From Candidatus Levybacteria bacterium GW2011_GWA1_37_16 (GTDB lineage Bacteria; Patescibacteriota; Microgenomatia; Levybacterales; UBA12049): DNA of 60,447 nt. Both the position numbers and the translations under genes were made by a program. This document shows positions 3,001 through 44,354 of the stretch, piece by piece. The number at the start of each line of letters is the position of its first letter. The first letter of the stretch is position 1. The notes under the pieces were generated by a model that ran no database searches, had not been told where the DNA came from, and saw only the letters and a program-made list of their open reading frames with translations. The stretch spans positions 1 to 60,447 of the forward strand of contig CALRGR010000005.1 of assembly GCA_943357985.1 (NCBI GenBank), in the 5' to 3' direction.

Positions 3001-3374
3001 TGTTGATTGTCGTCGAACGGACTGGCCGAAGCAATTCCCTCAATTTTTAGAAAATAAAAGAACTTGCGAAGAGCTGAAAGATGTCTTTTAAGGGAGCGAG
3101 GAGAAAGCTGATGCCCTGGTGTTATAACGTCAAGGAGAGTGCTTGACGTATCTCTAATTGAAGCCTTATTTGCTGTTTTATAAAGCTCAATTATTTGAGG
3201 AGTGACAGATGTGGGAGCAAAAGTCTTTTTAAATTCTTTTTCAAACCAGTGAATGAACTGGGTAATATCCGCTTTGTAGTTTTTAACCGTTGCTTTGGAG
3301 AGCTTTTTTTTCTGCCTGCCGGGAGGAAGGTTTTGTAAGTTTAGATATTGGACAAATTGTTCAGGCAGATTCAT
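1..3374 (-). CDS. Giant membrane-spanning surface protein (start complete, 3' end runs off the window; >1,120 aa): two N-terminal tyrosine-recombinase SAM-like/core-binding domains, one TM helix, then G/T/S/A/N-rich tail-fibre/beta-helix-like repeats
   Basis: Absent from the supplied ORF track because there is no stop inside the window. Manual minus-strand translation from ATG at 3374-3372 stays open to position 3; the frame was checked at 3009, 2697, 2217, 1887 and 3. It begins MNLPEQFVQYLNLQNLPPGRQKKKLSKATVKNYKADITQFIHWFEK...SPRSLKRHLSALRKFFYFLKIEG. A second unit reads SPLTIKNYVIDTRQFMQWAE...SPLSINRKLSSLRKYIAWAKEEGLI. The TM helix is FVHYLHFGALVILMSLLGFFIY. The distal part includes FQGKLTDSKGNPITGTSSVKFTIYDAEKKTGNALWTE and NVGIGTTTPGYKLDI. 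The V/P-rich plus-strand ORFs at 466-1857 are its antisense shadow. Confidence 0.8.
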   Translation of the reverse strand, partial: MNLPEQFVQYLNLQNLPPGRQKKKLSKATVKNYKADITQFIHWFEKEFKKTFAPTSVTPQIIELYKTANKASIRDTSSTLLDVITPGHQLSPRSLKRHLSALRKFFYFLKIEGIASASPFDDNQQSTINNQQPDPWHLKDFKNYLYVHSASPLTIKNYVIDTRQFMQWAEQVTNVAKEWQVADKNIFDKLNWKLVEEYKLHLIKSHSSPLSINRKLSSLRKYIAWAKEEGLIKRDASFAELPKTTETGIFSGIPQATPVSKPNYIPVPQQFATPAAEEPKQEPQEISKFSKVPPVRLVQKIIYAGDWLFDLIFIEPLALIVKGAELIVWKIKGKPVFETSKNKGEDIQVYNIKKKFYSSVSTNGMSIPQKTWHHIRFTRPQWYKNYHSHPFVHYLHFGALVILMSLLGFFIYQNLLFGPNSSQFTQIAQDENSIRRALLFQGKLTDSKGNPITGTSSVKFTIYDAEKKTGNALWTETDTINPKSDGTFSVALGNKNPLYQEMFVRNYTLWLGIAIRSDPELTPREHLTNVALSENSQRLDGMLPITQNKAGTKNVVLALDSSGNLTIGGKVSSTFQAIGGQFSLSGNVLFLTTVAGTNSDIILAPDGLGKIDIQKQIYNSSNSSTTPGAAGAVEIADNLFITASSSAQSALTINQTDTGPLISASSSGIAKFTVDGLGNTTIAGDLILTGSRISASTLTDANFGNSRFEVGSITTTGNFAQIGNVTFSTGTGSARLNGNTFIGTSSANTITFNGRVAQDSNLIPITTTGTNDLGSDSLPWDTLYVRNVKTGGTDGQQGWWTRTGTTLAPSNSGDNLSIEGTLAVTGATTLSSTLAVTGNTTVGGTFGATGATALSSTLSVSGATTLSSTLGVTGTTTLGNTFTVSGSNLTSLGGNLTVTGTAWTATPTISGLITATLGFDSNAASTVAGLTVDGAGNLTVSDGLTSLTSSATTSNTKALSVSQTGATIGTDYAGYFANTGAATTNVGLYATATGATNNYAAIFDAGNVGIGTTTPGYKLDIATSTASDRGINIANTATTGTNYGVYSSVTGAATANYGGYFVSTGATTDYGLAVAAMTGATSTGLDIGALSGTTANKGINIGAISGAGTGTGVDIGAFTNTGAT
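2981..3008. repeat. Perfect heptanucleotide tandem repeat GTTGATT x4 inside the giant ORF (encodes NQQSTINNQQ linker between the two SAM-like domains)
   Basis: Read directly: gttgatt gttgatt gttgatt gttgatt. Confidence 0.95.
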
Positions 3375-3900
3375 TGTAATTTAAATAAATACGATTACCG
3401 AATTAACACTTGTGAAAATTTATGCGTACGCACGAAATTATACGGATTATACAGATTATTCACAGAATTTCTAGACATACTACTAGAATAAGTAATATAT
3501 ATATGCGTGTCAATACCCTAGAGTATTTTGGTAAAGCTGAATGGATGTCTTATGATACAGTTTTTAAAACACTTCTCCGCTGTGAAAAATCACGCATAAA
3601 TACCTATTTTGCTATTTTCACAACTTTTATGTATTCGATAATTGTTCGCTATCTGTTCCGTCGTGTCTAGCTCAGAATATATCATCGATAAAAATTGATT
3701 GTTTATAATTTATTATAGATTATTTTAGCTTTTTGGTACTAAAAATTTAATTTCTCTTTCAAATGATTTTAAATAATAGATAGTTAATAATAAATAATAA
3801 ATGTCTTATTATAACTAGAGGCCTATGTTGGCAGGGCTAAGCACCTAGTGATAGGTATTTCAATGGAGAGGTTTAGATTGTTACGACAAGCTATCAATGA

Positions 3901-4872
3901 TTATTTTCTTAGACGGGATTTTAATTTAGCCTTAACTATCAATAACGACGATATAACTATAAGGCTTATAAGTAATATCTGTACCGGAGCTCCAATAAAG
4001 CGGGTGGTTTGGGTCAAGGCTGGGCTATGTTCGTAAAAAGTAAGGATTAATGTGGCTGTATAGGGTCCCAGCAGGAAAGTCTCCGGCCAAGCAGCGGTAA
4101 TAGATCTGGATGTGTTAGCGAGGATATTTGTTTTTTCTAGATCTACCCTGCCTACAGTCTGCCCAAATAGGTTTTTAATAAGAATATATCCTGATGTTGA
4201 TATAAATTGTTCTCCCTGGTTTGAGGTTTTAACCGAAAACTCAATAGGGCCTTTGTCTTTGAAGAATGATGAATTAAATTCGTTTATTTTGACTTGAGGC
4301 TTGGTAATCTGGCCTACGGTAAGAAGTACATTTGTTGCTACTGCAGTAATAATTTGAGATTTGTTCTTCTGAGCAGCATCCGTAGCAGGGGATGATGTGA
4401 ATAATAATGAAAAGTAATAGTCTGATAATGTTTCATCTTGAGTAATGTCTATGCGCAAGCTTAATTCTTTTTGTTGTTTTGGTCCGAGCTCTATAGAAGA
4501 AATTTCTTGATCTTTATCGAATACCTTAATTTTTTGAAATATGAGCGGATCTTTTAGATTAAGTTCACCACTTTTTAAATATCTTACCTGTCCATTCTCA
4601 TTGTCAGATTGAGTGAAGGGCTTAAAGCTAATATTAAAAGTTTCAGTTTGATCTGTTTGATTTTTGATTATAATGGGTGTTTTCAGGCTAACAGGGGCAG
4701 TTGCACGAATTTTGATAATAGGAGGATAAACCCCCAGTGAAAATGCAGATGCGTCTGCTTTCTGTGGAAATACTACCAATACTACCAATATTATCAATAC
4801 CACCAATGCCCCAATTTTAAATTCAAAATTTTTAATTTTTAATGAATTTTTAATGTTTAAATTTTTAGACAT
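3901..4872 (-). CDS. Cell-surface protein of unknown function with N-terminal signal/anchor and C-terminal TM anchor plus basic tail
   Basis: 323-aa ORF. N-terminal hydrophobic segment IGALVVLIILVVLVVF. C-terminus is ...APVQILLISLIVISSLLIVKAKLKSRLRK. The middle is beta-rich with alternating polar/hydrophobic residues. A DUF916/DUF3324-like architecture is only a guess. Confidence 0.55.
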   Translation of the reverse strand: MSKNLNIKNSLKIKNFEFKIGALVVLIILVVLVVFPQKADASAFSLGVYPPIIKIRATAPVSLKTPIIIKNQTDQTETFNISFKPFTQSDNENGQVRYLKSGELNLKDPLIFQKIKVFDKDQEISSIELGPKQQKELSLRIDITQDETLSDYYFSLLFTSSPATDAAQKNKSQIITAVATNVLLTVGQITKPQVKINEFNSSFFKDKGPIEFSVKTSNQGEQFISTSGYILIKNLFGQTVGRVDLEKTNILANTSRSITAAWPETFLLGPYTATLILTFYEHSPALTQTTRFIGAPVQILLISLIVISSLLIVKAKLKSRLRK

Positions 4873-4910
4873 TTTGAATTAAGATTTGATTTTAAATTAG
4901 AAATTAAGAA

Positions 4911-5651
4911 TTAAAAATTCGGAATCGCTATAAATGTTATAGAATTGCTGTAAAACTGCGGTGCTTGGTTTCCTGAGATATTGATTTTATAGCTAATTTG
5001 GGCGCTTGCGGATTGATTTGCTTGTAATATAATCTGTGGTTCGTTTGGCTTTTGGAACTGTCTGTATGAGTTGATATCACTAAATCCTTCTGCGCATGGA
5101 TTTGAAATTGCTTGCCCTGAGCCCGCCGAATGGGCCGAAGGACTTGTCCTGAGCGAAGCCGGAGGATCACATCTATATCCAAATCCATAAGTTAATGGTC
5201 CATTCCATGGTTGAGCGACTGAAGCTGTGCAAATTCCATTATCGCAAGTGGTATCCGGAATAAAGCCTTCTGAAGAATTATGTTTTAGCATATGATCTTC
5301 AAAAGCTTGTACCGAATATCCAAAGGCTGTAGAGGAGGACACCAAAAGATTATTTAGCCTTATTACCGGGTCTGTTGCGGAAAGTTGGCCATAGTCAATA
5401 AAATTCTCCGAAACAGAAAAAGAAAACGGCTGCTCCGAAGAAAAATCTTCAAATCCAACTTGAATACTATAATTTTTTCCGCTAAAAAGGCCGTGAAGTG
5501 TTGATATTGTCTCTTTTGGGACAGGAATGTCATCTTGCGGCTGGGTGACAATACTTCCGTCAATTGTATAATCTTGGGCAAAAGCAAACGGAATAGTGAA
5601 TAGTGAATAGTGAATAGTGAATAGTATGCTAATAATTAAGAGAATCTTCAC
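4911..5651 (-). CDS. Secreted protein of unknown function (signal peptide MKILLIISILFTIHYSLFTIPFAFAQ)
   Basis: 246-aa ORF with a typical signal peptide ending AFA-Q and four Cys in the mature part. It contains the heptamer tract 5591-5625 and the GC-rich element-derived segment PPASLRTSPSAHSAGSGQ (5113-5168). Confidence 0.6.
   Translation of the reverse strand: MKILLIISILFTIHYSLFTIPFAFAQDYTIDGSIVTQPQDDIPVPKETISTLHGLFSGKNYSIQVGFEDFSSEQPFSFSVSENFIDYGQLSATDPVIRLNNLLVSSSTAFGYSVQAFEDHMLKHNSSEGFIPDTTCDNGICTASVAQPWNGPLTYGFGYRCDPPASLRTSPSAHSAGSGQAISNPCAEGFSDINSYRQFQKPNEPQIILQANQSASAQISYKINISGNQAPQFYSNSITFIAIPNF
5591..5625. repeat. Perfect heptanucleotide repeat GAATAGT x5 within the signal-peptide codons of CDS 4911-5651
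   Basis: Read directly: gaatagt x5. On the coding strand this is ACTATTC x5, translated LFTIHYSLFTIP. Confidence 0.95.
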
Positions 5652-5717: not shown

Positions 5718-8303
5718 ATGAAACCGTATAATCCCTCTGAAGTCGAGAAGAAGTGGCAAAATGTTTGGGAGGAAACAAAAATTTACTCTCCCAACCTTGA
5801 TAGTGCAAAAAAACCTTTTTATAACCTCATGATGTTTCCTTATCCGTCTGCTGAAGGAATGCACGTTGGGAATATGTACGCTTTTACTGGCGCAGATATC
5901 TATGGCAGGTTCCAAAGAATGCAGGGGTATGACGTTTTTGAGCCCATTGGACTTGACGGATTTGGAATTCATTCTGAAAATTATGCAATAAAAGTGGGTA
6001 AGCACCCGGCAGAGCAGGCCAAAATTTCGGAAGAAAACTTCTATCGACAGCTCCGCTCTATTGGAAATTCTTATGAATGGACAAGAACTATTGAAACTTA
6101 TAAACCGGAATATTACAAATGGACGCAATGGCTTTTTATACAACTTTTCAAGGCTGGATTGGCATATAAAAAGAAAGCGCCTGTTAATTTCTGTCCTAAG
6201 GATCTAACAGTTTTGGCTGATGAGCAGGTAATTGATGGTAAATGTGAACGTTGCGGTTCTGTAGTTGAAAAAAGAGAGCTTGAGCAATGGTTTTTCAAGA
6301 TAACTGATTATGCCGAGAAATTGCTTAGTAATATCCCAGAGCTAGATTGGTCAGAAAAGGTCAAAGTTGCGCAGAAGAACTGGATTGGAAAAAGCGAGGG
6401 CGCAAGGATTCGTTTTGTCATCCTGAGTGAAGCGAAGGACCTACCTGCCTCGCAGCAAGGCGGGGATTCTTCGGCCATGCTTCAGAATGACAACTCAATT
6501 GAGGTATTTACAACCCGTCCAGATACTTTGTTTGGTGCGACATTTTTAGTTATTTCACCGGAACTTGCAAAAAAGTGGCTTGATGTTGGTTGGAAAGCTC
6601 CTACAGGGGTTGGGAAATATATCGAGGAGGCTCTTGTAAAAAGAACATTGATAGAAGAAAACACAGATAAAACGGGAGTTTTCTCGGGAATTTACGCAAT
6701 AAATCCTGTAAATCAAGAGAAAATCCCGATTTGGGTAGCTAATTATGTTCTTGCTGGTTATGGAACAGGCGCAATTATGGCAGTTCCTGCGCATGACCCG
6801 CGGGATTTTGAGTTTGCAAAAAAGTTTGATCTGCAAGTAAAGACTGTCATCCTGAGTGAAACGAAGGATCTACCTGCCTCGCAGCAAGGCGGGGATTCTT
6901 CGGCCATGTCTCAGAATGACAAAATGATTGAGGTTTATGTCGGAGAAGGGGAAATTATTAATTCAGGTGATTGGAATGGCTGGAAGACGCCTGAAAGTAT
7001 TTCAAAAGTCATAAAATGGTTGGAAAAGAAGGCAATTGGTAAAAGAGAAGTTAATTACCATTTAAGAGACTGGTTGATATCGCGCCAAAGATATTGGGGG
7101 CCTCCAATTCCAATGATTGATTGTCCAAAGTGCGGTTGGCAGCCAGTTGCCGAAGCTGATCTGCCTGTAGTTTTGCCGGAACTTGAGGACTTTAAGCCGG
7201 AAGGGAATGGAAAGTCTCCGCTTGCAAATATAGACACTTTTATAAATACCAAATGTCCTAATTGTGATGGTCCTGCAAAAAGGGAGACAGACGTCTCCGA
7301 CACCTTTTTGGACAGTGCATGGTACTTTTTCCGCTATGCCTGCACTGATATAGAAAGTAGTGCTTTTGATAGGGAAAGGCTAAAAAAATGGTTGCCGGTG
7401 AATATGTATATTGGCGGAGCAGAACACTCAGTGCTACACCTTTTATATTCACGGTTTATAGCAATGGTACTGGCTGATTTGAAATTTACGGATTTTGAAG
7501 AACCTTTCAAGAGATTCTACGCGCACGGACTGATCGTAAAAGATGGTGCCAAGATGAGCAAAAGCCGCGGAAATGTGATTATTCCGGATAAATACATAGC
7601 TAAATTCGGCGCAGATACACTCAGATGCTACCTAATGTTCCTTGGTCCTTTTTCAGCAGGCGGTGACTTTAGGGACACAGGAATTGAAGGAATGAATAGA
7701 TTTCTAAAAAGGGTTTGGAAGCTTTGCTCGGCGGTATTAAGTAGTAAGTATCAAGTATCAAGTACAGAAAATACTAAAGAGCTTGATACGGCAATGAATA
7801 AGACGATTAAAAAAGTGACAGAAGATATAGAAAATCTTAGATATAATACCGCGCTGGCGACCTTGATGGAGTATTATAACGTGCTTTCCGAGTTTTATAC
7901 TAAATACAAAATACTCGATACTAAATACTGCAAAACTTTTGTTTTGCTTCTGGCTCCTTTTGCCCCGCATATGACAGAAGAGCTGTATCAGCAATTGACA
8001 ATTGACAATTTACAATTTACTAATAAAGGCAAGAAAGATAGTCAATCATTTAATTCTATTCATCTTGAATCTTGGCCGAGTTTTGATGAGAAATCATTAG
8101 AAGAGTCTGAAGTAAATATTGCAGTTTCTGTAAATGGTAAGACACGAGACGTGATAAAGATCGAAAAGTCAAAAGTCGAAAGTCAAAAGTTTGTTGAGCA
8201 GTTGGCCAAAGAGAGTGAGAATGTAAAAAAGCACCTGCAAGGAAAGAAGATTTTAAAGACAGTTTACGTGCAGGGAAAAATAATAAATTTTGTTATAGAT
8301 TAA
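5718..8303 (+). CDS. leuS: Leucine--tRNA ligase
   Basis: 861 aa. Class I motifs are present: PYPSAEGMHVGN (HIGH-type) and KMSKSRGN. The editing-domain motif TTRPDT and overall LeuRS collinearity are also present. Confidence 0.97.
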   Translation: MKPYNPSEVEKKWQNVWEETKIYSPNLDSAKKPFYNLMMFPYPSAEGMHVGNMYAFTGADIYGRFQRMQGYDVFEPIGLDGFGIHSENYAIKVGKHPAEQAKISEENFYRQLRSIGNSYEWTRTIETYKPEYYKWTQWLFIQLFKAGLAYKKKAPVNFCPKDLTVLADEQVIDGKCERCGSVVEKRELEQWFFKITDYAEKLLSNIPELDWSEKVKVAQKNWIGKSEGARIRFVILSEAKDLPASQQGGDSSAMLQNDNSIEVFTTRPDTLFGATFLVISPELAKKWLDVGWKAPTGVGKYIEEALVKRTLIEENTDKTGVFSGIYAINPVNQEKIPIWVANYVLAGYGTGAIMAVPAHDPRDFEFAKKFDLQVKTVILSETKDLPASQQGGDSSAMSQNDKMIEVYVGEGEIINSGDWNGWKTPESISKVIKWLEKKAIGKREVNYHLRDWLISRQRYWGPPIPMIDCPKCGWQPVAEADLPVVLPELEDFKPEGNGKSPLANIDTFINTKCPNCDGPAKRETDVSDTFLDSAWYFFRYACTDIESSAFDRERLKKWLPVNMYIGGAEHSVLHLLYSRFIAMVLADLKFTDFEEPFKRFYAHGLIVKDGAKMSKSRGNVIIPDKYIAKFGADTLRCYLMFLGPFSAGGDFRDTGIEGMNRFLKRVWKLCSAVLSSKYQVSSTENTKELDTAMNKTIKKVTEDIENLRYNTALATLMEYYNVLSEFYTKYKILDTKYCKTFVLLLAPFAPHMTEELYQQLTIDNLQFTNKGKKDSQSFNSIHLESWPSFDEKSLEESEVNIAVSVNGKTRDVIKIEKSKVESQKFVEQLAKESENVKKHLQGKKILKTVYVQGKIINFVID
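6417..6491 (+). repeat. 75-bp GC-rich nested-palindromic element inserted in frame in leuS (copy 1; encodes VILSEAKDLPASQQGGDSSAMLQND)
   Basis: Sequence: gtcatcctgagtgaagcgaaggacctacctgcctcgcagcaaggcggggattcttcggccatgcttcagaatgac. The central hairpin is cctgcc...ggcggg. The outer arms gtcatcctgag / cttcagaatgac are imperfectly inverted. Confidence 0.9.
6846..6920 (+). repeat. 75-bp GC-rich nested-palindromic element inserted in frame in leuS (copy 2; encodes VILSETKDLPASQQGGDSSAMSQND)
   Basis: Differs from copy 1 at 4 of 75 positions by my alignment. It lies 429 bp downstream of copy 1 in the same orientation and frame. Confidence 0.9.
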
Positions 8304-8311
8304 GCTTTTAA

Positions 8312-8950
8312 ATGGAGTACCAGAAGCTAGCTGAAACATATTTTCCTTTTATACGACGTCACTTTTTGCCACTAGCCTTGGGATTTGTTGGAATGATGTT
8401 CTTGAGTTATGGTTTGATATCTTTATTAGCTTCTAAAAATTCACAAAATCAAGTAGTCTTTGAGCCTGGTCCTTCGGAAACCTCAGGATCTTTAGCAAGT
8501 GCTACTTTATCTCAGCAGATTGTCGTAGACATTGAAGGAGCTGTTGAACGACCTGGTGTTTATAAACTTAAGTCTGATGCAAGAATTCAAGATGTTCTTA
8601 TATCTTCCGGCGGACTTTCCGCAAAAGCAGATAGATCTTGGGTAAGTAAGAATCTCAACCTTGCTTCAAAATTAACTGACGGAGCAAAGCTCTATATACC
8701 AACGCAGGGAGAAAATTACACTTCGGGAAGTTCGGTCCTCAGTGCTCAAGCAACTCAAAATTCGAGTGGTCTTATAAACATCAACAATTCCACTGCAGGT
8801 GAATTGGATAGTCTTCCTGGTATAGGAGTGGTTACTGCAGGCAAAATCATAAATGGTAGGCCATATGCGGCCTTAAATGACCTGTTGGAAAAGAAGATAG
8901 TAGGTAGTAAGGTATTTTTACAGATTAAGGATAAAATAAGCATCTATTAA
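8312..8950 (+). CDS. comEA: ComEA-type DNA-binding competence protein (TM anchor, SLBB-like, C-terminal helix-hairpin-helix)
   Basis: VDIEGAVERPGVYKLKSDARIQDVL (SLBB-like) and NINNSTAGELDSLPGIGVVTAGKIINGRPY (HhH). Confidence 0.85.
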   Translation: MEYQKLAETYFPFIRRHFLPLALGFVGMMFLSYGLISLLASKNSQNQVVFEPGPSETSGSLASATLSQQIVVDIEGAVERPGVYKLKSDARIQDVLISSGGLSAKADRSWVSKNLNLASKLTDGAKLYIPTQGENYTSGSSVLSAQATQNSSGLININNSTAGELDSLPGIGVVTAGKIINGRPYAALNDLLEKKIVGSKVFLQIKDKISIY

Positions 8951-26814: not shown

Positions 26815-27207
26815 TTACTTTAGTTCGACACTCGCGCCTGCAGTTGTTAATTTTTCCTTAGCTTCTTCTGCGGTTTTCTTGTTGACTGCTGTCATGATCT
26901 CTTTTGGAGCTGCGTCAACTAAATCTTTAGCATCTTTAAGTCCCAATGTTGGAACTAACTCTCTAAGAGCTTTAATTACACTAATTTTGCTTGATCCGGA
27001 GCTTGCTATAACAACGTTAAAGACTGTTTGTTCTTCTACCGGTTCTCCTGCCTCTGCTGCTTCTTGTCCTGAGTTTGCCGAAGGGGCTGCAGCCATTGCT
27101 GCGGAAACGCCAAACTTTTCTTCCAAAGCTTTTACAAACTCCGAAAGCTGCAGAACTGACATCTCTTCAACTGTTTTTAATAAATCTTCTTGTGATACTT
27201 TTGCCAT
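26815..27207 (-). CDS. rplL: 50S ribosomal protein L7/L12
   Basis: MAKVSQEDLLKTVEEMSVLQLSEFVKALEEKFGV...LKDAKDLVDAAPKEI...; GGAGGGAGG lies upstream. Confidence 0.96.
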   Translation of the reverse strand: MAKVSQEDLLKTVEEMSVLQLSEFVKALEEKFGVSAAMAAAPSANSGQEAAEAGEPVEEQTVFNVVIASSGSSKISVIKALRELVPTLGLKDAKDLVDAAPKEIMTAVNKKTAEEAKEKLTTAGASVELK

Positions 27208-27232
27208 AAATACACCTCCCTCCGATCGGTAA

Positions 27233-27345
27233 TTACTAATTTCAAATTTCTAACCTGCCTCGCGGCAAGGCGGGTCAAATCTAAATGTTCAAAATTTAAA
27301 ACATTAAAAATTGAATAAAAATTAAGAATTAAAAATTATAAATTA
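27233..27345 (+). repeat. Dispersed AT-rich intergenic repeat, copy A (with 21-bp GC hairpin 27254-27274)
   Basis: Sequence: aatttctaa-cctgcctcgcggcaaggcggg-tcaaatctaaatgtt...acattaaaaattgaataaaaattaagaattaaaaattataaatta. It aligns with copies at 31324-31425 and 32546-32659. Confidence 0.85.
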
Positions 27346-27891
27346 TGCTGTTTTCTTTTTTGAAACAGCATCTAGTGTCATGACTAATTTTTGTAAATTC
27401 CAATTTAATGCTCTGTGTAAAGCAAATATTGGAGCTTTAAGTCCACCAACAAGCTTAGCTAAAAGGATTTCACGAGAGGGAAGTGCGGACAATTTTATTA
27501 CGTCTTCTGCACTTGTTATCTTGCCGTCAAGGATTGCAAATTTAATTTTAGGAAGGCTTAGGTCTTTTATTGTTTTTGCAAGCTTTTTAAGAGGTTCTAT
27601 GATGTCTCCGAATAGAAAAAGAGTTCCTGTTGGTCCTTCAAAACCTTTCTCATCTTCTATTTTAAGATTTTTTTGCTCCAAAGCAATCTTTAGAAGCGTG
27701 TTTTTTGTGATTGCAAAGTCGGCATCAAGAGGCTTAATTGCTTTTTTAAGCTCTTCAAGCTGTTTGTGGGTTAATCCCTGGTAGTTTGTAAAGACTACGC
27801 CTTTGGCTTTATCTAATTGCGCAGAAAACTCGGCCACAACAGCCTCTTTTTTAGCTCTATTTTGACTTACTGGTTTTATATCGTCACTCAT
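27343..27891 (-). CDS. rplJ: 50S ribosomal protein L10
   Basis: 182 aa. Contains KKEAVVAEFSAQLDKAKGVVFTNYQGLTHKQLEELKKAIK and sits immediately upstream of rplL. Confidence 0.93.
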   Translation of the reverse strand: MSDDIKPVSQNRAKKEAVVAEFSAQLDKAKGVVFTNYQGLTHKQLEELKKAIKPLDADFAITKNTLLKIALEQKNLKIEDEKGFEGPTGTLFLFGDIIEPLKKLAKTIKDLSLPKIKFAILDGKITSAEDVIKLSALPSREILLAKLVGGLKAPIFALHRALNWNLQKLVMTLDAVSKKKTA

Positions 27892-27921
27892 AAAATAAAA
27901 AACACTTCTACCTAAGAAGTG
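27892..27921 (-). terminator. Hairpin plus U-tract abutting the rplJ start codon (candidate L10-leader attenuator)
   Basis: The minus strand reads ACACTTCT TAGGT AGAAGTGT TTTTTATTTT ATG. Confidence 0.45.
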
Positions 27922-28047
27922 TTCGAATCGGTGGTTGCTAGTTCGCCAAACTTGTCTGCGCTTCGCTTCGCAAGTGAACTCGGCTTCGCCTCCGTTCCTC
28001 GGCGAGATTTATTCTGTATCCAGAACTCGCTATCTTAGGATTAATTC

Positions 28048-28076
28048 ATTCTACATTGAAGTGTGTTTATTGTCAA
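28048..28076 (-). promoter_or_regulatory. Candidate sigma-70-type promoter for rplJL
   Basis: The minus strand has TTGACA (28076-28071), a 17-nt spacer, then TAGAAT (28053-28048). This would give a leader of roughly 150 nt. Confidence 0.5.
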
Positions 28077-29466: not shown

Positions 29467-30270
29467 TTAAGCTACGTTTATTTTTACACCTTGGCTCATT
29501 GTGGATTTAATTGTTGCTGCCTGAATATTTGTAGCTTTTATTAAATCAATAACTGCTTTAATGTTGTCATTTAATTTTTCTTTTCCGAATGAAATTTTTC
29601 CTACAGAAAGGTGAATAATTGGAAATTTGCCTTCTGTTTTTATAGTAAGCTGTCCTTTTTCAAACTCTTTTGCCGCACTTTCCGGATTTTTTGATATTGT
29701 TCCGTTTTTTGGATTTGGCATAAGTCCACGTGGTCCCAAAACTTTTGCAACACGTGCCAATTTTGTCATCATTTCAGGTTCTGCAAGCAAAATATCAAAA
29801 TTAATTTTCCCTTTTTCAATTTCTGCAATAATTTCATCGTTCGCGATTGCAACTTTAACTTGCTTTCCTGTTCCGTGGGGGAGCATGAGATTTCCAAATT
29901 GTCCTGTTCTTGTAGTATTTATGTGAAGCTCTACGGTTTCGTCAAACTTTGATCTTTTTAATTTCTCCAAAAGATCCAAGGCTTCGGCAATTTTATATTT
30001 GTTTTTTTTGTCAACCAAACTTGCGGTTGCTATGTAGCTTTTTGAGCGTTTTTTCTCTACGGCTTTTACCTTTTTTACCATTTTCTTTTCGGCTTTGGGA
30101 GTTTCTTCAGATGTAGTTTGTTCAGTTGCTATGTCTTCTGATGCATTTTGTGCAAGTTCTTCGCCCTGAGCTTGTCGAAGAGTTTTCTGCTCGCGCTTAA
30201 CGTTTTTCTTTTTTTGATCTTCTTGCTCGGAAACTTCGTCTCCGAATGATTTAATTCTTACTTTTCCCAT
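29467..30270 (-). CDS. rplA: 50S ribosomal protein L1 with a ~70-aa acidic/basic N-terminal extension
   Basis: The core reads KFDETVELHINT...MLPHGTGK...VLGPRGLMPNPKNGT. ATG 30270 sits 1 nt from the rplK stop. The extension contains the element-like TLRQAQGEEL. Alternative internal start: MVKKVKAVEKKRSKSY. Confidence 0.88.
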   Translation of the reverse strand: MGKVRIKSFGDEVSEQEDQKKKNVKREQKTLRQAQGEELAQNASEDIATEQTTSEETPKAEKKMVKKVKAVEKKRSKSYIATASLVDKKNKYKIAEALDLLEKLKRSKFDETVELHINTTRTGQFGNLMLPHGTGKQVKVAIANDEIIAEIEKGKINFDILLAEPEMMTKLARVAKVLGPRGLMPNPKNGTISKNPESAAKEFEKGQLTIKTEGKFPIIHLSVGKISFGKEKLNDNIKAVIDLIKATNIQAATIKSTMSQGVKINVA

Positions 30271-30694: not shown

Positions 30695-30741
30695 AATGTT
30701 TATTATCCTTCGACTTGCTTCGCTTACTCAGGATGGCCTCG

Positions 30742-31323: not shown

Positions 31324-31425
31324 AAGTTAAATTTCTAATTTCTAATTTCTAATCAAATCTAAATGTTTTAAATTAAAATATTAAAAATTGAATAAAAATT
31401 AAGAATTAAAAATTGTAAATTACTT
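31324..31425 (+). repeat. Dispersed AT-rich intergenic repeat, copy B (lacks the GC hairpin; contains AATTTCT x3)
   Basis: Aligns with copies A and C on both sides. The junction ttctaa|tcaaat is exactly where A and C carry cctgcctcgcggcaaggcggg. Confidence 0.85.
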
Positions 31426-32545: not shown

Positions 32546-32659
32546 TTTCTAATTTCTAACCTGCCTCGCGGCAAGGCGGGTCAAATTCAAATGTTTAAAC
32601 ATTTAGAAATTAAAACATTAAAAATTCATTAAAAATTGAAAATTAAGAATTTTAAATTT
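32546..32659 (+). repeat. Dispersed AT-rich intergenic repeat, copy C (with GC hairpin 32560-32580)
   Basis: Sequence: taatttctaatttctaa-cctgcctcgcggcaaggcggg-tcaaattcaaatgttt...aaaattgaaaattaagaatt. Confidence 0.85.
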
Positions 32660-33781: not shown

Positions 33782-34058
33782 TTAACTAGCTCTTTGGTAT
33801 TAGAGAAAGTTGGATGCTTTTTCTCTACAATTTCACAGAATTTGAGGTAAGTCTGCCACGGCGGATGACAGAGCAAATTGTTTTTGACTGTGGTCAAAAA
33901 CGCGAGCTCACCTAATTTACAAATCTGGGAAAATACCAACTAAATTATCGGTACCAAAGTGCGAATTTATCTCTCCGCCGGCTGGCGGATATCCCCGGGT
34001 CTGTGAATAGGTCTTTCCTACGAAGCTCACTTCTGATAAAATAATCAAGTCATTTCAT

Positions 34059-34536: not shown

Positions 34537-34803
34537 AAGTCACATGCCGAAACAGCTAGGCGATAGAAAATAGAGAGTAGAAAGTAGTACTTTGAAAATA
34601 GAAACTGGAAGGTAGATTTTTTCTAGCTTCTATCTTCCAACATCCAATACTATCTTCAATCATCTATCATCTACCGTCTATTAATTAGGCCAATAGTTAA
34701 ATGGAGCGGACGAGTGAAACGAGGAGCTCGCCATGCAAGCGAAGCCAAGTCTGACTTGGCGAAGCGCAGACAGGCGTGGGAAGGAGTCTCTCCACCGACA
34801 CAA

Positions 34804-38181: not shown

Positions 38182-39048
38182 TTAATATAGGTTTAGTTTT
38201 TGTAGAATTTCTTTACCTTCAGGATAACCATTTAGGAAGTCTTTGTAGGACATTGGTTTGCCGCCCTCGACTTGAACTTTATTGTCCGGCAAAAGTTTTA
38301 TAATTTTATTGTTTAGGCTAGATTCTTCGCCTTTCTCAGAATTACAAACGAGCCAAACTCCGGGCCAAAGGGAGTAGGCGCGGATCATGTGATGCAATTG
38401 ATTATTGATTATTGATTGTTGATTGTTCAAGTCTATAAATCCTGAGTCGCGGGTTAAGGTTTTTGTGAAATTTGCTTTTGAATGGTCTTGTTCGGTTGGC
38501 TTTAATTCGCCACATAAATACATGGGAAGAGATTTAGCAAGCATTTGTGAGCCAATTTTGAATAGTCGTTCATAAAGAGTACTCGCCGTATCGTTTGGTA
38601 ATATTTCTACTTTCTCCTGAACTAGAATTGGTCCATGGTCTACTTCTTTGTCTAATTTTATAATTGTTACTCCTGTTTTTGTATCGCCGTTTAGAATAGC
38701 GGTTTGTCCCGGAGTTGGTCCGCGGTATTTTGGTAAAAGTGACGGATGAATATTTATAATGCCTTTTGGAAAAATATCTAAGACTTCTTGTGGAATTATT
38801 AGTCCAAAATTTGCAAGAACGCCCGCAGTAGCGGCAGTATTTTGTATTAAGTATTTTGTATTATGGTCAAATTTCGAAACAGATATGCATTTGATACCAT
38901 TCTTCTTACAAAATTTCGACACTGGCTCGATATCGTTTTTTTCGGTAGTTAATACTAAAACAAGTTCAAAATCAGATTTCAAAACTTCCAAAATCGGCAA
39001 AACATAATTTCCAGTTCCAAAAAAAACAATTCGTAATTCGTAATTCAT
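38182..39048 (-). CDS. fmt: Methionyl-tRNA formyltransferase
   Basis: IVFFGTGNY..., NIHPSLLPKYRGPTPGQTAILNGDTKTGVTIIKLDKEVDHGPIL. It contains the heptamer tract 38398-38425, which encodes NNQQSIINNQ. Confidence 0.9.
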   Translation of the reverse strand: MNYELRIVFFGTGNYVLPILEVLKSDFELVLVLTTEKNDIEPVSKFCKKNGIKCISVSKFDHNTKYLIQNTAATAGVLANFGLIIPQEVLDIFPKGIINIHPSLLPKYRGPTPGQTAILNGDTKTGVTIIKLDKEVDHGPILVQEKVEILPNDTASTLYERLFKIGSQMLAKSLPMYLCGELKPTEQDHSKANFTKTLTRDSGFIDLNNQQSIINNQLHHMIRAYSLWPGVWLVCNSEKGEESSLNNKIIKLLPDNKVQVEGGKPMSYKDFLNGYPEGKEILQKLNLY

Positions 39049-39059
39049 AAATCGTAATT

Positions 39060-39641
39060 CTATATCTTGAGTTCTTCGAAGACGTCTTCGCCGTCTTTGT
39101 CCTTTTCTGACTTATACAATGTTCCTTTTTGTTCCAAGACTCTTTTTGGGAAAAGAATTCCGTCTAAATGGTCAATCTCATGCTGAATAACTATTGCCAT
39201 AAATCCCTTAAAATTTCTGATATGAGTTTTCCCGTTTTCATCTAAGAAGCTTACTGTGATATTTTTATTTCTTATAACTTCACCCCAAATATTCGGTAAA
39301 GAAAGGCAGCCCTCAAGCATTTTCCCCTGACTCTTTTTTGGTTTCCTAGCTTCAATTTTTTTGGAGTTTGAGATATGCGGAATTTCCTTTTCCCCGGAAC
39401 TAGAAATAATCTTAGGGTTTAAAAAAACCTGAACTTCCGATTTGGTGGTGGGTTTTGCAATAAAAATTCTAACAGATTTTCCTATTTGTGGCGCAGCAAG
39501 TCCAACCCCAACAGGATCTTTTGCGAAAAGAATCGCCTCTTTCATTTGGGAAAGTAAATCTTTTACTCCGCCATCAACTTTTTCAACAGAGCTTGAAACT
39601 TCTGAAAGAACTGGATTGGGAGCCGTAACAATTTTTATCAT
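39060..39641 (-). CDS. def: Peptide deformylase
   Basis: GVGLAAPQIG, EGCLSLP and QHEIDHLDG. There is a ~20-aa basic insert before the EGCLS motif. Confidence 0.92.
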   Translation of the reverse strand: MIKIVTAPNPVLSEVSSSVEKVDGGVKDLLSQMKEAILFAKDPVGVGLAAPQIGKSVRIFIAKPTTKSEVQVFLNPKIISSSGEKEIPHISNSKKIEARKPKKSQGKMLEGCLSLPNIWGEVIRNKNITVSFLDENGKTHIRNFKGFMAIVIQHEIDHLDGILFPKRVLEQKGTLYKSEKDKDGEDVFEELKI

Positions 39642-40733: not shown

Positions 40734-43086
40734 GGGCGGCTTTGGCTTGGTCGTCATTTGGGTCAATTTTCTCAAGGATATATTTTATTTGCTTGATTGC
40801 TTTTTGTTCTAAAGCTTCATCAATTACTTTTCCTGTTTTATCTACTGCTTGCTGATGATAAAAAAGTGCCAATCCAAAATGTGCGTCTCCATAAGCTGGT
40901 CTAAGTTTTACCGTGTTTTCAAGTGTTTTAACCGCTGCGCTAAAGTCTCCGCTTTGTCCTTGTAAAATTCCAAGGTTGTAAGAAATTGTTGCGTCAGTTG
41001 GCGCAAGTGTTTGGGCTTTTTTAATTGCCTCAAGCGTAAAGGGAAGATATTTGGGGTAAACTTGAGAAAGTGTGTAAAAAAGCCTTACTCTACTTTTCCA
41101 GAAAGTAACATTGTTTGGGTGTTCTGTTGTAACTTTATCACTTGTTTGAATTGCGCTTTGAAGAAGTGCTGTAATAATCGGCTCGTCCTTGGCAGCTTCC
41201 GAAGCTTGCTTAATTTGATTAGCGCTAATAATAGATGCTGCCAGCACCCCATTGTTTATGGAGAACTCATCAAGAAAGACCGGCTCATCTTTTCTCTGTG
41301 TAATTGCACTAGTAAGATATGTATATGCAGGTTCGAATTGTTGAGCGCGGTCTAAATTATACCCCATATAATATGCCTTGTCGGCATTCCAATATTTAAA
41401 AAGTTGTAATAGAAGATAGAGAGCCAGAACTACCAAAGCTATAATTATTGCTTTTTGCGCTAGGGTTTTCTGTGCGCCCATCTTATTTGTTTGTGGAAAT
41501 GCTAATACTTTTTCATTGTCAATTAAATCTAGAGTTAGAAGCGCAAACGCTGGGATAAGGAAAAAGTAAATATTAATAACAACAACGGAGAATCCAACGA
41601 CGTTTGTAACAAGAATACTTACATATCCTGCAAGAAGAGCAAGGGTAAGCCATTGACCATTGACCATTGACAATTGACCATTTTTGAGTAAAGCTCGGAA
41701 GGAAATATAGAGAAAATAGAAAATCATCCCTATGTAAGACAAAAATCCAAAAAGGCCGGTGGTTGCTAGGAAATTAAGATATTCATTGTGGGCTTTGTTA
41801 TATAGGAAATTCCATTCGGACGTAAGGTTATGTTCCTGTGGGCGGTATTGGTAGTAAGAGTATGCAAAAGTTTCAACTCCGGATCCAAAAATTGGATTAT
41901 GTTTCCATATTTGAAAAACACCTTTCCATACGACCAAACGGATATCCCAAGAACTTGTTATATTTAGCTCAAGTGCTGGAATTGCGGCAGGAGTACTAGT
42001 TTTAGTAGCAGTCTGTTTGGATATCTTTGAAGAAATCCCCGGATATGTAATAGCGTTTAATTTATCAAATGGGAAACCGACAAAAAATACAGTTAAGAGG
42101 AAAATGAAAAGGGAAGCAAGCAAAAGTTTGTTGGTCTTTTTTTCTATAATCTCGGAGAAGACATTCTTGTTTATAATTTTAATACTTGTTGGGAATGGAA
42201 TTCTGAGAAACGGGTGGCGATAGTAGATGCTGACCCATTTAATTGAGGCTGCTTCTCTTATTTTATATATTGGTGTAAGCATAATTAAAAATGCTGCAAT
42301 AAAACCTAAGAATCCTGACTGAGATTTTGTGTAAAGAAGATCCAAGAAAAAGAGAGTAGCAAGTAGCAAGTAGCAAGTAGCAAGTATAAATTCCTTTTGC
42401 AATACATAATACTTAATACTTGATACATTATACTTTCCTCGTAAGTTCGCAAGCTTTGAAAAATAGGAAATAGAAAAGCTTAAAGAAATCGGCAGTAATA
42501 TTGCAAGAAATGCGGCCAGCCAATTGGGTTGTCCAAGGGTTGAAAAAATTCTAAGTTTTGGTTGAAAATCTACTGTCCAGCATGAAACATCAAAAGTTCC
42601 CCGGAAAAGTAGGCAAGTTGGGTCGTATCCAAAATGGGACGGAAGTCCCCAAAGTGCAACAATTGCGCCGGACAAAAGACCTAAGACAAGAAGTTTTTTT
42701 ACCATCTTTAAAGTTAAAAGATTTGAAGCAAATGCGTAGTAAAGAAGAATGTAGGAAATAATTGATAGTAGGCCGCCGTTAAATCTTGAATAATATCCCC
42801 ACAAAGAAGTGTGAGGGTCAAGCGAAATTATAGTTGAGATAATTTGGGAGGCAAGAAAAAGCGCAATTGGAATATCCAGCGGAGTTCTTTGAATAAAAAA
42901 TCTTTTCTGCGCAACCATTTTTACAGCCCAAGAAGCTGTAATTATTATTGTTAGGGCAAAAGTGGCCCACATTTTATTAAATTCAAAAAGCTCGCTTGTA
43001 TTATTAGCAAATAGAAGCGGAACAAGAAGGAAGAGGAGGTAAAAAGAGTATTTAATAAAGCTATCTGCCCATTTAATTACTTTCAT
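40711..43086 (-). CDS. Polytopic O-antigen-ligase-like (Wzy_C) membrane protein with C-terminal TPR repeats
   Basis: 791 aa with more than 10 TM segments. Contains AHNEYLNFLATTGLFGFLSY (O-antigen ligase signature region). The C-terminal TPR-like repeats include AISYNLGILQGQSGDFSAAVKTLENTVKLRPAYGDAHFGLALFY. Confidence 0.75.
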   Translation of the reverse strand: MKVIKWADSFIKYSFYLLFLLVPLLFANNTSELFEFNKMWATFALTIIITASWAVKMVAQKRFFIQRTPLDIPIALFLASQIISTIISLDPHTSLWGYYSRFNGGLLSIISYILLYYAFASNLLTLKMVKKLLVLGLLSGAIVALWGLPSHFGYDPTCLLFRGTFDVSCWTVDFQPKLRIFSTLGQPNWLAAFLAILLPISLSFSISYFSKLANLRGKYNVSSIKYYVLQKEFILATCYLLLATLFFLDLLYTKSQSGFLGFIAAFLIMLTPIYKIREAASIKWVSIYYRHPFLRIPFPTSIKIINKNVFSEIIEKKTNKLLLASLFIFLLTVFFVGFPFDKLNAITYPGISSKISKQTATKTSTPAAIPALELNITSSWDIRLVVWKGVFQIWKHNPIFGSGVETFAYSYYQYRPQEHNLTSEWNFLYNKAHNEYLNFLATTGLFGFLSYIGMIFYFLYISFRALLKNGQLSMVNGQWLTLALLAGYVSILVTNVVGFSVVVINIYFFLIPAFALLTLDLIDNEKVLAFPQTNKMGAQKTLAQKAIIIALVVLALYLLLQLFKYWNADKAYYMGYNLDRAQQFEPAYTYLTSAITQRKDEPVFLDEFSINNGVLAASIISANQIKQASEAAKDEPIITALLQSAIQTSDKVTTEHPNNVTFWKSRVRLFYTLSQVYPKYLPFTLEAIKKAQTLAPTDATISYNLGILQGQSGDFSAAVKTLENTVKLRPAYGDAHFGLALFYHQQAVDKTGKVIDEALEQKAIKQIKYILEKIDPNDDQAKAALKIWGAL
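42356..42383. repeat. Perfect heptanucleotide repeat GTAGCAA x4 inside CDS 40711-43086 (a second tract, CCATTGA x3 plus 2 degenerate, lies at 41650-41684)
   Basis: Read directly. Confidence 0.95.
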
Positions 43087-43172
43087 GACAATTTTCCTAT
43101 CGTAGCATATTGGAAAATCCTCATCAAGGTGTTAAACTAGCTACTAGCCACTAGTTACTAGTTGCTATCTTT

Positions 43173-44354
43173 ATGTTTGATAAATTCTTTAGTATGTTTT
43201 CGTACGATATTGGCATTGACTTGGGTACTTCAAACACGCTCGTTTATGTTAGAGGAAAAGGAATTGTAATACGGGAGCCGTCCGTTGTTGCAATGCATAA
43301 AAAAACTAAAAAAATTGTGGCAATTGGAACAGAGGCAAAAAAAATGGTGGGAAAAACTCCTGCAACAATTATTACGATAAGACCACTAAGAGGTGGAGTA
43401 ATTTCTGATTTTGATGCAACAACAGCCATGATTGCTCATTATATTCAGGCAGTTCATGAAGTCTCAAATGTAATTCCGGTGCGTTTTGCAAAGCCTAAAG
43501 TTGTTGTAGGAATTCCATCATCTGTTACAGAAGTTGAAAGACGAGCGGTTTGGGAGTCAGCACTCAATTCGGGAGCGCGTGCCGCTTATTTAATTGAAGA
43601 ACCAATGGCGGCAGCAATTGGAGAAGGAGTTTCTGTATTTGCTCCAACTGGCGTTATGATTGTGGATATTGGCGGTGGGACTACGGAAATTGCAATTATT
43701 TCTTTGGGCGGAATTGTAATAAGTAAAAGTCTTAAGGTTGCCGGAGATGACATGGATGCTGCAATTGTTCACTACATAAGACTACGTCATGGGCTTTTAA
43801 TTGGGGAAAGAACTGCAGAAGATTTAAAGATTACAATTGGCAGTGCATATGAAAGTAAGTCAAAAACCAAAAGTTCCTCCTTCGCTAAAGCTTCGAAGGA
43901 CGAGCAAAAGTTAAAAGTTTCGGAAATTCTGGACGAAAAAGTTTTAGAAGAGGACGGGTTTGTTACTATTGAAGACCTGCCTGCCGGCAGGCAGGATAAG
44001 ATGGCGGTTGTTCGCGGTCGTGATATAGAAACGGGACTTCCAAAAAGTTTAAGAGTAACGGAGATTGAAATAAGAGAGGCATTGTCTCCTGTATTGTCGC
44101 AAATTATTCAGGGAATTGTGGAAGTTTTGGAAGAAGCGCCACCGGAACTTACATCTGATATTTTGGAGCACGGAATTTTACTAACAGGTGGTGGTTCAAT
44201 GTTGCCGGGATTTAATCATTTAATAGTTGATAGAACAAAAATCCCAGTCATAAAATCTGAGGATCCTCTAACTTCCGTTGCGCGTGGAACAGGAAAAGTT
44301 TTGGAAGACGATGCGCTGCTCCAAAGAGTCAAAGTCATCGGCGGCCTCAGGTAA
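43173..44354 (+). CDS. mreB: MreB paralogue heading the mreBCD-mrdA operon, with a ~50-aa insertion
   Basis: IGIDLGTSNTLVY, EEPMAAAIGEG, IVDIGGGTTE and GILLTGGGSMLPGF. It is 393 aa against 338 aa for the other copy. The extra segment is ESKSKTKSSSFAKASKDEQKLKVSEILDEKVLEEDGFVTIEDLPAGRQDKMAV. Confidence 0.9.
   Translation: MFDKFFSMFSYDIGIDLGTSNTLVYVRGKGIVIREPSVVAMHKKTKKIVAIGTEAKKMVGKTPATIITIRPLRGGVISDFDATTAMIAHYIQAVHEVSNVIPVRFAKPKVVVGIPSSVTEVERRAVWESALNSGARAAYLIEEPMAAAIGEGVSVFAPTGVMIVDIGGGTTEIAIISLGGIVISKSLKVAGDDMDAAIVHYIRLRHGLLIGERTAEDLKITIGSAYESKSKTKSSSFAKASKDEQKLKVSEILDEKVLEEDGFVTIEDLPAGRQDKMAVVRGRDIETGLPKSLRVTEIEIREALSPVLSQIIQGIVEVLEEAPPELTSDILEHGILLTGGGSMLPGFNHLIVDRTKIPVIKSEDPLTSVARGTGKVLEDDALLQRVKVIGGLR
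43976..43995. repeat. Perfect 20-bp palindrome CCTGCCTGCCGGCAGGCAGG inside the mreB insertion
   Basis: The sequence is its own reverse complement. A second hairpin, TCCTTCG ctaaagctt CGAAGGA, lies at 43878-43900. Confidence 0.95.

Follow-up and report, generated by a model that had tools for sequence, protein, structure and literature searches.

The window analysed here, that is, the whole stretch of 60,447 nt of contig CALRGR010000005.1 from Candidatus Levybacteria (Patescibacteria; 38.7% GC), carries short GC-rich hairpin sequences in spacers and inside genes, which are the subject of this study. Its gene set is typical for a Patescibacterium and includes the housekeeping genes leuS, comEA/comEC, argS, rarA, mreC, a PBP2-type transpeptidase gene and the nusG-rplKAJL cluster, as well as two mreB paralogues, fmt, def, dprA, topA, a 16S rRNA gene and seven tRNA genes; the closest named homologues of its LeuRS and MreB are also from Candidatus Levybacteria. 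A sequence-only reading had described the hairpins as about 15 copies of one mobile or recombinogenic family resembling repetitive extragenic palindromic (REP) sequences or transposable elements of the miniature inverted-repeat type (MITEs), tolerated by proteins as loop insertions. All sequences quoted in support were found where they had been placed, and what is central to the observation is real, with solid statistics, but two families and a few unrelated hairpins are lumped together in it. We consider it probable that the window carries at least two old families of short, non-coding, self-complementary REP-type repeats, here termed A and B, both of which extend well beyond this lineage and are gained and lost discretely.

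Two hairpin families in the window

A census of GC-rich 20-mers in the window returned 108 islands, mostly ordinary coding sequence or RNA genes, so that GC richness alone carries no meaning. The over-represented words fell into two separate motifs, CCTGCCTCGC/GCAAGGCGGG and CGAAGGAC/TCCTGAGTG. A single family was not borne out, since the models and patterns for A and B select different sites and B also occurs alone; the supposed 15 copies become at least two families with about 10 to 14 copies of very unequal quality, together with three or four unrelated hairpins (Table 1).

The family A unit of about 27 nt, (T/C)GTC-ATYCT-GA-G-C-[GNA]-G-C-GA-AGRAT-CT, consists of an unpaired TGTC tag followed by a hairpin, the stem of which comprises five base pairs starting with A-T and T-A, then two tandem G.A pairs, and then two G-C pairs closing a GNA triloop. 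Its apex is a GCGNAGC mini-hairpin, the sequence type of the very stable d(GCGAAGC) mini-hairpin. Units occur singly or as inverted heterodimers with outward tags, and the dimers can, in the manner of REP dimers or REPINs, fold into one long hairpin. A hammerhead or kink-turn reading of CUGAG..CGAAG was dropped, the CUGAUGA core and the 3-nt bulge being missing.

One genome per species was scanned for the unit, with a pattern that left Y and R independent, and viral contigs were scanned for the outer termini only (GTCATYCTGAG..CTCAGRATGAC), with the inner arm unspecified. The search yielded 143 loci with 301 distinct unit sequences in 320 occurrences. They come from about 20 phylum-level lineages as well as from viral contigs with a GC content of 34-65%; dimers were found in 23 viral contigs. 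Tandem arrays of four to five A dimers, spaced at about 80-90 nt, were seen near the ends of some viral contigs (L013, 8546-8969; L018, 8921-9480). The plasmid collection gave a single partial match, in Planktothrix.

The Y and R positions of the half-units covaried as TT/AA (156), TC/GA (139), CC/GG (8), TG/CA (6) and CT/AG (3), with 8 non-pairs, i.e. Watson-Crick pairs of five types in 312/320 units. Since the search patterns did not tie Y to R, this covariation is an independent result and was not imposed. In an alignment of 75 A sequences, 97.7% of cells were paired and both sides had changed in 49 cells, compared to 12.8 in shuffles (0/500 reached 49), while sliding the 3' partner lowered pairing to 18-45% of cells. 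The aligned helix has nine positions, with A-U at position 1 in 75/75 and U-A at position 2 in 69/75 sequences, covariation at four pairs, and a conserved G.A/A.G, which is not Watson-Crick, at positions 6 and 7. The base preceding GTC is T in 258/320 units (81%) and C in 43/320 (13%), and the window units carry the tag TGTC four times and TGTA once. Nearly half of the units (150/320) are 25 nt long and centred on the 5-nt CGNAG, which leaves a 3-nt loop if the G-C pair is counted, and about one third have centres of 9-24 nt, often with nested hairpins. At the 3' end, a conserved C is mostly followed by T and then by a variable base; a CCA tail consensus was not seen in A units. Heterodimers make up 41 of the 60 distinct A dimers. 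The termini given above form 11-bp terminal inverted repeats in the dimers, at which no target-site duplication exceeded control at any k from 2 to 9.

A covariance model (CM) built solely from units of unrelated genomes finds five significant units in the window, namely four half-units in leuS (E = 9e-9 to 3e-4) and a solo unit in fmt, a formyltransferase gene according to Pfam, which the sequence-only reading had overlooked. Both leuS segments are thus well founded as copies: they are TC/TT heterodimers, 91% identical to each other over 90 nt, including 14 nt of 3' flank, and TCCTGAGNGAAGCGAAGGA occurs twice in the window compared to 0.05 expected. Dimer 1 is translated as VILSEAKDLPASQQGGDSSAMLQND (LeuRS residues 234-258) and dimer 2 corresponds to residues 377-401; the z-scores of the DNA folds are -2.5 and -3.6, respectively. 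Besides its A unit, read CNSEKGEESS, fmt (38182-39048, minus strand) contains two more repeat-derived segments, NNQQSIINNQ, which is a heptamer array, and NTKYLIQNT, an AT-rich repeat also present in leuS as YTKYKILDTKY (inverted repeat).

The degenerate core CCTGAG-N3-16-CGAAG matched nine times at eight window sites, compared to 0.17 expected, and 0/100 shuffles reached nine. Four segments listed earlier as copies (5113-5168, 19209-19295, 30151-30186 and 30700-30741) retain this core motif only and look like decayed A copies. The cores at 19219-19246 and 30705-30734 (minus strand) have the string ATCCTGAGTRAGCGAAGYRAGTCGAAG in common; the former is followed by a B-like fragment at about 19258-19285, and in the latter the 3' arm AAGGAU overlaps the likely Shine-Dalgarno sequence of rplK. 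The 16-mer at 30165 recurs unchanged in an unrelated viral contig (L020), as the core of a bona fide unit there. The rplA frame in which it lies (29467-30270, minus strand) begins with a 73-residue K/E-rich extension, and since only the part from residue 74 onwards is homologous to solved L1 proteins and residue 64 is an internal Met, the true start codon may lie downstream, leaving a 190-nt rplK-rplA spacer. The core inside comEA is probably a decayed copy or a chance match, left doubtful because the sister has substitutions at 8470-8488 and no clean indel. A similar GA-hairpin build downstream of rplL (26775-26812) is weak (CM E = 1.9). Furthermore, the palindromic 30-nt insert in the second mreB (mreB2), which lies in phase between heptamer units, is only loosely tied to A through its CGAAGGA arms.

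Family B is a GC palindrome of 20-21 nt. Its 21-nt hairpin, CCTGCCTCGCRGCAAGGCGGG, has four window copies compared to 0.00 expected: those at 27254-27274 and 32560-32580 are identical, which upholds their earlier listing as copies, and the centres of the leuS dimers match with one mismatch. A TAATTTC array found by TRF (32543-32559) lies immediately 5' of the copy at 32560. The hairpin has no stop codon in any of its six frames, and no flanking duplication was found at the window copies. An intrinsic terminator was considered for B and rejected, there being no T-run on either strand (TCAAAT follows on the plus and TTAGAAA on the minus strand); rplL is actually terminated by a different hairpin (26724-26746), which has its T-run on the minus strand.

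At least 120 metagenome contigs, with a GC content of 29-66%, contain the exact 21-mer between unrelated flanks; its translations there include PASRQGG and LPRGKAG, and its hosts include T9SS sorting domains, MnmA, AlaRS and RF2. B was also found inside loops or stems of A-type (TGTC-tagged) or other GC hairpins (L174, L185, L243, L151/L183/L224 and L199/L219/L229). None was found in viral contigs, so that phage carriage of B is unsupported. Among the matches listed, metagenome contigs that carry B also contain variants of intermediate form, e.g. CCTGCCTGCCGRYAGGCAGG, thereby linking the mreB2 palindrome (43976-43995) to family B. In the window, CCTGCCTGCCGGCAGGCAGG occurs as one perfect copy and one with three mismatches, the latter being the segment 3311-3330, which is at best a decayed B relative. 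The minus-strand open reading frame (ORF) that holds this segment (3-3380) runs off the window edge after more than 1124 codons and has matches to phage-integrase SAM-like domains near its N-terminus (residues 138-236), the rest being without a Pfam match.

Folding supports part of the copies: the leuS dimers, the mreB2 palindrome and B at 27254 have fold z-scores of -2.2 or lower, and the core-only sites fold no better than shuffles, with no hairpin stability at 3311-3330 either. For solo A units folding is uninformative, because nearest-neighbour models give tandem G.A pairs no credit. Similarity beyond GC richness was found for the core copies and not for three listed segments. Of these, 27940-28010 lies inside a full-length, sub-threshold match to the ribosomal protein L10 leader, and the other two, 33974-33989 and 34744-34760, are simple hairpins whose sequences resemble neither A nor B. 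In the Rfam search of the window, only rRNA and tRNAs reached the gathering score, and over both leuS dimers there was no match with E < 0.6.

Arrays of about four to five heptamers, the sequence of which varies from locus to locus, are the commonest tandem repeat in the window (about 27/54 TRF rows), and they occupy ORFs (leuS, fmt, a wzy-like gene and the giant ORF) as well as spacers. Three independent settings show GC hairpins placed in phase between heptamer units: the mreB2 30-mer; a 24-nt leuS insert of the sister, flanked by AAAATAC; and B in metagenomes. Among the metagenome matches listed, the 7 nt on either side of B are identical in 16/112 cases (14%), compared to 1.0 in controls and only at k = 7, and 6.6% of B copies abut a period-7 array, compared to 0.5% of random positions.

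Table 1. Hairpins, related sites and heptamer arrays in the window.
Feature	Positions	Strand	Setting and evidence
Possible decayed B variant	3311..3330	+	Giant ORF 3-3380 (-), read LPPGRQ; 17/20 match to mreB2 palindrome; z = -0.4
Two tandem degenerate A-type cores	5113..5168	+	246-aa ORF 4911-5651 (-), family unassigned; core match 5116-5140
A inverted heterodimer 1 with nested hairpin B at 6444-6464	6417..6491	+	leuS, 75 nt; CM matches for both halves
A inverted heterodimer 2 with nested hairpin B at 6873-6893	6846..6920	+	leuS, 75 nt; CM E = 9e-9 and 9e-5
A core TCCTGAG-GTTTC-CGAAGGA	8470..8488	-	Inside comEA; CM E = 0.48
Degenerate A core, 14-nt loop	19219..19246	+	Spacer from rarA to tRNA-Pro; partial CM match, E = 5.3
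Core motif	27068..27083		CCTGAG-N3-16-CGAAG match, unlisted earlier
Hairpin B CCTGCCTCGCGGCAAGGCGGG	27254..27274	+	rplJ-rplL spacer; abuts AATTTCT-type heptamers; fold z = -2.2
Probable ribosomal protein L10 leader (RF00557)	27887..28057	-	Upstream of rplJ; full-length, 35.6 bits against a gathering score of 44, E = 0.003
A core CCTGAGCTTGTCGAAG	30165..30180	+	73-codon N-terminal extension (or leader) of uL1
Degenerate A core	30705..30734	-	Directly upstream of rplK start codon; partial CM match, E = 0.85; fold not significant
Empty paralogous B site, ..ATTTCTAA then TCAAATCT..	31345..31360	+	Junction 31352/31353
Hairpin B	32560..32580	+	Spacer after NTP-transferase gene 31667-32545
Simple perfect hairpin TCCGCCGGCTGGCGGA, non-member	33974..33989	+	Upstream of tRNA-Thr; z = -3.9; no match to CM or either motif
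Simple hairpin GCCAAGTCTGACTTGGC, non-member	34744..34760	+	Between rpmG and tRNA-Trp; unrelated to A and B in sequence
Solo A unit	38316..38349	-	fmt; CM 27.3 bits, E = 9e-5
Palindromic insert TCCTTCG..CGAAGGA, 30 nt	43875..43904	+	mreB2, read SSFAKASKDE; covers listed site 43878-43900
B-variant perfect palindrome CCTGCCTGCCGGCAGGCAGG, 20 nt	43976..43995	+	mreB2, read DLPAGRQ; fold z = -4.0
Heptamer arrays	2979-3010, 5591-5625, 7734-7764, 7897-7929, 7992-8017, 8164-8190, 31330-31353		TRF
Heptamer arrays (rest)	34564-34681, 38397-38424, 39028-39060, 41650-41682, 42355-42386, 42401-42435, 43136-43161		TRF

Other repeats were noted in the same window. A 33-nt inverted repeat (57620-57652 and 59276-59308) flanks the 16S rRNA gene on both sides, probably as a processing stem; downstream of this gene lie a glycosyltransferase gene and tRNA-Cys, not a 23S gene. 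In addition, ORF 25812-26663 (minus strand), which has no Pfam match, contains four tandem copies (25868-26507) about 180 nt apart and 65-70% identical, which look like an internal protein repeat.

Filled and empty sites in relatives and paralogues

Among relatives, LeuRS varies in length from 760 to 1108 aa, and peptides of the VIL..QND or ..RND type occupy three sites, which differ between lineages. In P0002 (locus L001), which has the nearest LeuRS at 71% nucleotide identity, site 1 holds an older dimer with no B centre and site 2 is empty, as it is in P0003, P0004 and P0007; the empty site in L001 has GTTAT at its left and ATTGA at its right boundary. These repeat-derived peptides at recurrent sites make up the extra segments at the three LeuRS sites examined and explain part of the variation in protein length in Levybacteria, with a bearing on annotation, on alignment-based phylogeny of the Candidate Phyla Radiation and on structure prediction.

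A closer relative, L265, has an MreB that is 93% identical and is syntenic with about 36.8-54.8 kb of the window. It is without the 24-nt in-frame stretch of fmt (38325-38348) that belongs to the A unit. The 30-nt mreB2 insert corresponds to a clean gap in L265 and L268, where L265 reads (TCAAAAG)x3, and the perfect palindrome is missing from the same two relatives, whose MreB proteins are 92-93% identical; both earlier calls of mreB insertions are strongly supported. The peptide of the palindrome, DLPAGRQ, is absent from P0122-P0125 and P0127-P0135; the more distant P0126 has it at this very site. The nearest listed relative of P0126, judged by a shared RPKAGRP insert, is P0125, which has no DLPAGRQ, nor has P0123, a close relative of the window; thus, in two separate pairs of MreB sequences the peptide is present in one and absent from the other, and the same site has been hit or cleared at least twice. 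The two MreB paralogues of the window (21774-22790 and 43173-44354) are 42% identical; at one loop of the second, all Levybacteria relatives carry a variable insert of 20-60 residues.

The sister orthologue of the 246-aa protein is 11 residues (11 codons) shorter at 5113-5168. Relatives own other GC palindromes, in leuS of L001 and in topA of L265 (42 nt, 79% GC, in frame), and between the window and L265 every indel of at least 9 nt within a shared gene is a multiple of 3 nt. L265 also has, between fmt and def, a gene of the 23S_rRNA_IVP family (2835-3243) that is not in the window, with a TTGATTG-type heptamer run at the border.

A clean empty site for B lies within the window itself. When the four copies of an AT-rich intergenic repeat of about 110 nt (27215-27350, 32521-32665, 31310-31425 and, in reverse, 4805-4935) are aligned, the copy with the junction 31352/31353 is without exactly the 21 nt of B. 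The orientation of this AT-rich repeat relative to flanking genes varies, and it may hold promoter-like TTGAAT..TAAAAT strings. Taken together, the filled and empty sites, paralogous as well as orthologous, support the description as mobile or recombinogenic and, at the level of aligned sequences, show A and B to be discretely gained and lost over the time in which species diverge.

The proposal that proteins tolerate the copies as loop insertions is supported by the host proteins. Compared with the solved LeuRS of T. thermophilus, both LeuRS inserts align to gaps, located where the chain enters and leaves the CP1 editing domain. Across the host genes, inserts are absent in close relatives, and every intragenic indel is a multiple of 3 nt. 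In an AlphaFold2 model of LeuRS, with a mean predicted local distance difference test (pLDDT) score of 70.5, pLDDT stays under 50 in two stretches between confident strands, residues 239-258 and 382-404, and also at residues 764-776, a heptamer-derived insert. The intragenic hairpins apparently survive in essential genes as in-frame loops that are predicted to be disordered. Only one of the six reading frames of the leuS dimers is open, and both copies use it. Elsewhere, the A unit is translated variously, e.g. as VILSEAKDL, CHPERSEGS or ILRFAQND, and this reading of the same DNA in several frames and hosts shows the apparent constraint to act on the DNA and not on the protein.

Origin of the repeats and alternative explanations

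If A and B are indeed REP-type repeats, the large number of copies in genes would reflect a genome with almost no spacer DNA, in which the persisting intragenic copies would be those that are multiples of 3 nt, stop-free and placed in surface loops or linkers, and they would be carried as disordered peptides in the LeuRS CP1 hinges, the MreB loop, Fmt and the 246-aa protein. New copies may start out as single-stranded hairpins at intermediates of replication or repair. They would either be templated by an existing copy, with microhomology at the boundaries, or be due to an unlinked nuclease acting in trans, and the GC hairpins would land preferentially at heptamer-array junctions or in the loops of other hairpins. 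That hairpins lie in phase between heptamers, and B in hairpin loops, favours insertion at single-stranded or slipped structures in replication or repair. Because leuS copy 2 resembles copy 1 over 90 nt including flank, and because of GTTAT/ATTGA at the empty site in L001, templated microhomology copying fits better than cut-and-paste; the data speak neither for nor against a trans-acting nuclease.

Several observations weigh against this reading. No transposase or REP-associated tyrosine transposase (RAYT) domain was found among the approximately 50 window ORFs scanned, and when 1882 ORFs from the 143 A loci were clustered, no enzyme recurring beside the elements stood out, the top neighbour clusters being, as judged by eye, sensor-, ABC-type ATPase- and phage-like proteins. 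The core-only sites at 5113, 19209, 30151 and 30700 give CM E >= 0.85 or no match and fold no better than shuffles. The microhomology argument comes from one site at about 71% nucleotide identity, and the polarity of gain and loss was inferred from few relatives without a tree. Insertion or excision was never seen directly, the leuS region being identical in five freshwater runs (contigs, breaking at repeats). Moreover, near-identical sequences of 21-27 nt across phyla fit neutral selfish decay poorly and suggest constraint or function. As to the kinship of A with the CGTC/TGTC-tagged REPs, its tail is CT plus a variable base, where the published REPs have CCA (PMC3733652), and A was placed with them, and not with any one of the four families of that paper, by described features.

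Such constraint also speaks for the view that the hairpins were selected in place as regulatory structures (terminators or attenuators, mRNA stabilisers, Shine-Dalgarno sequestration or protein-binding sites), their spread being secondary. Spacers are favoured across genomes: 16% of A units lie inside long open frames, compared to 69% of controls, and 38% of B copies among the matches listed, compared to 66% of random positions. In the window, the core at 30705-30734 (minus strand) pairs the likely rplK Shine-Dalgarno sequence, B sits between rplJ and rplL and after an operon, and REPs are reported to influence mRNA fate (PMC3733652). We nevertheless regard selection in place as unlikely, since B has no T-run on either strand, its two intergenic copies are oppositely oriented relative to transcription, and paralogous and orthologous sites exist without the element and with no visible consequence; in addition, intragenic copies in essential genes cannot be terminators, and no Rfam family matches.

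A more speculative proposal, to which we give only a small chance, is that A, B and the heptamer arrays are footprints of one hitherto unrecognised, transposase-free DNA insertion process operating across many bacterial phyla, possibly hairpin-primed or template-switch copying at stalled forks that targets heptamer junctions and hairpin loops. If this were true, the same sequences of 21-75 nt would enter essential proteins in frame through this one process, and the cross-phylum near-identity would be a mechanistic requirement of the process instead of a sign of common descent or function.

Classical MITEs derived from insertion sequences (IS) and moved by a transposase encoded elsewhere in the genome appear very unlikely. 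The A dimers do have 11-bp terminal inverted repeats, the same 7 nt flank B on both sides in 16/112 cases compared to 1 in controls, and the view is limited to 60 kb of the genome. However, A dimers show no target-site duplication and window B copies no flanking duplication, known MITEs are longer than 21 nt, transposases were found neither among the approximately 50 window ORFs scanned nor recurrently next to the elements, and the 7-nt flanks are better explained by pre-existing heptamer arrays, as present at the empty site in L265. A classical MITE was therefore rejected, and of the earlier REP/MITE-like label only the first half stands for family A: unit architecture, inverted dimers and intragenic copies are REP-like, and neither target-site duplications nor, among neighbouring genes, a parent IS or a recurrent transposase were found. 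That the segments are a by-product of GC-rich Gly/Ala/Pro/Arg linker codons and chance palindromes, with no repeat family at all, is hardly credible: although four to five of the 15 listed sites are unrelated or insignificant and the 108 GC-rich islands are mostly ordinary, the exact 21-mer has four copies against 0 expected and the core motif nine against 0.17, a model trained on other phyla recovers the window copies, and spacers and several reading frames share the same DNA.

Comparison with known repeat systems

REP-type repeats gained and lost as discrete units, the reading preferred here, are best matched by the CGTC/TGTC-tagged REP superfamily described by Di Nocera, De Gregorio & Rocco (2013; PMC3733652), which includes dRS3 of Neisseria and RPE-4 and RPE-6 of Rickettsia. 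As described there, its members have an unpaired CGTC tag, often TGTC or CCTC, an 8-9-bp stem with A-T residues at the first two positions, a loop of 4-5 nt and a short unpaired 3' tail with the consensus CCA, and they form mostly inverted dimers, among which heterodimers are common (PMC3733652). Family A agrees with the published features in its tag, the A-T/T-A start of the stem, inverted heterodimers, occurrence in several phyla, intragenic in-frame copies and the lack of an associated transposase, and its loop is short in part of the units; it differs in the conserved tandem G.A mismatches, the GCGNAGC apex and nested loops of more than 20 nt. The strings GTCAT, CTGAG and CGAAG had no match in the text and supplements of that paper (PMC3733652). 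Searches of the literature for A or B by sequence or peptide string returned no relevant paper, only one chance match in an unrelated nanoparticle paper, and none was found that joins Patescibacteria with REP, REPIN, RAYT or MITE. The present host is a Patescibacterium, and the strongly supported A units of the window are all intragenic. Tagged REP-type repeats are hereby extended to Patescibacteria, and clean pairs of filled and empty sites are supplied for two hairpin families, the published CGTC REPs likewise being without a transposase.

REPINs are lineage-specific in sequence, and the A unit, unlike them, is nearly identical across about 20 phylum-level lineages. The two share an inverted doublet of short palindromes with a spacer and a non-autonomous nature, as REPINs are described by Bertels & Rainey (2011; PMC3116915), and REPINs are reported to be inherited vertically. 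The tag of REPINs is GTAG compared to TGTC/CGTC in A, and no RAYT (Y1/HUH transposase) is present among the approximately 50 window ORFs; for these reasons, i.e. the wrong tag, no RAYT seen and no lineage specificity, a REPIN-RAYT system was rejected.

Two further parallels concern lifestyle. Rickettsia palindromic elements reportedly lie in frame in genes of known function in a small genome, where they are said to be tolerated as surface peptides, and RPE-1 is said to measure 100-150 bp and to be limited to one genus. As described, they resemble the present repeats in their in-frame lifestyle, while the elements here are 21-75 nt long and found in many phyla. The GC clusters of yeast and fungal mitochondria are short GC palindromes in AT-rich DNA, located in spacers and some coding sequence, which show presence/absence polymorphism and the mobilising activity of which is unknown; some classes have TAG target duplications. 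Being organellar and unrelated in sequence to A and B, they offer an analogy only.

The heptamer arrays, finally, are comparable to the STRR repeats of cyanobacteria, which are also heptamer arrays. In Geobacter metallireducens, elements of four to five heptanucleotides occur in intragenic and intergenic positions, with one consensus per family, whereas the window heptamer differs from locus to locus, and the link seen here, in which the arrays serve as landing places for GC hairpins, does not appear in the parts of that account available (PMC2700814). The hairpin-between-heptamers pattern is a concrete lead on the site choice of such elements, and together with the cross-phylum near-identity, which goes without a known mobilising enzyme, it forms the moderately interesting remainder of the comparison. 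As a whole, the case is instructive as an illustration of a selfish or structural repeat of a known kind; it is not a new system.

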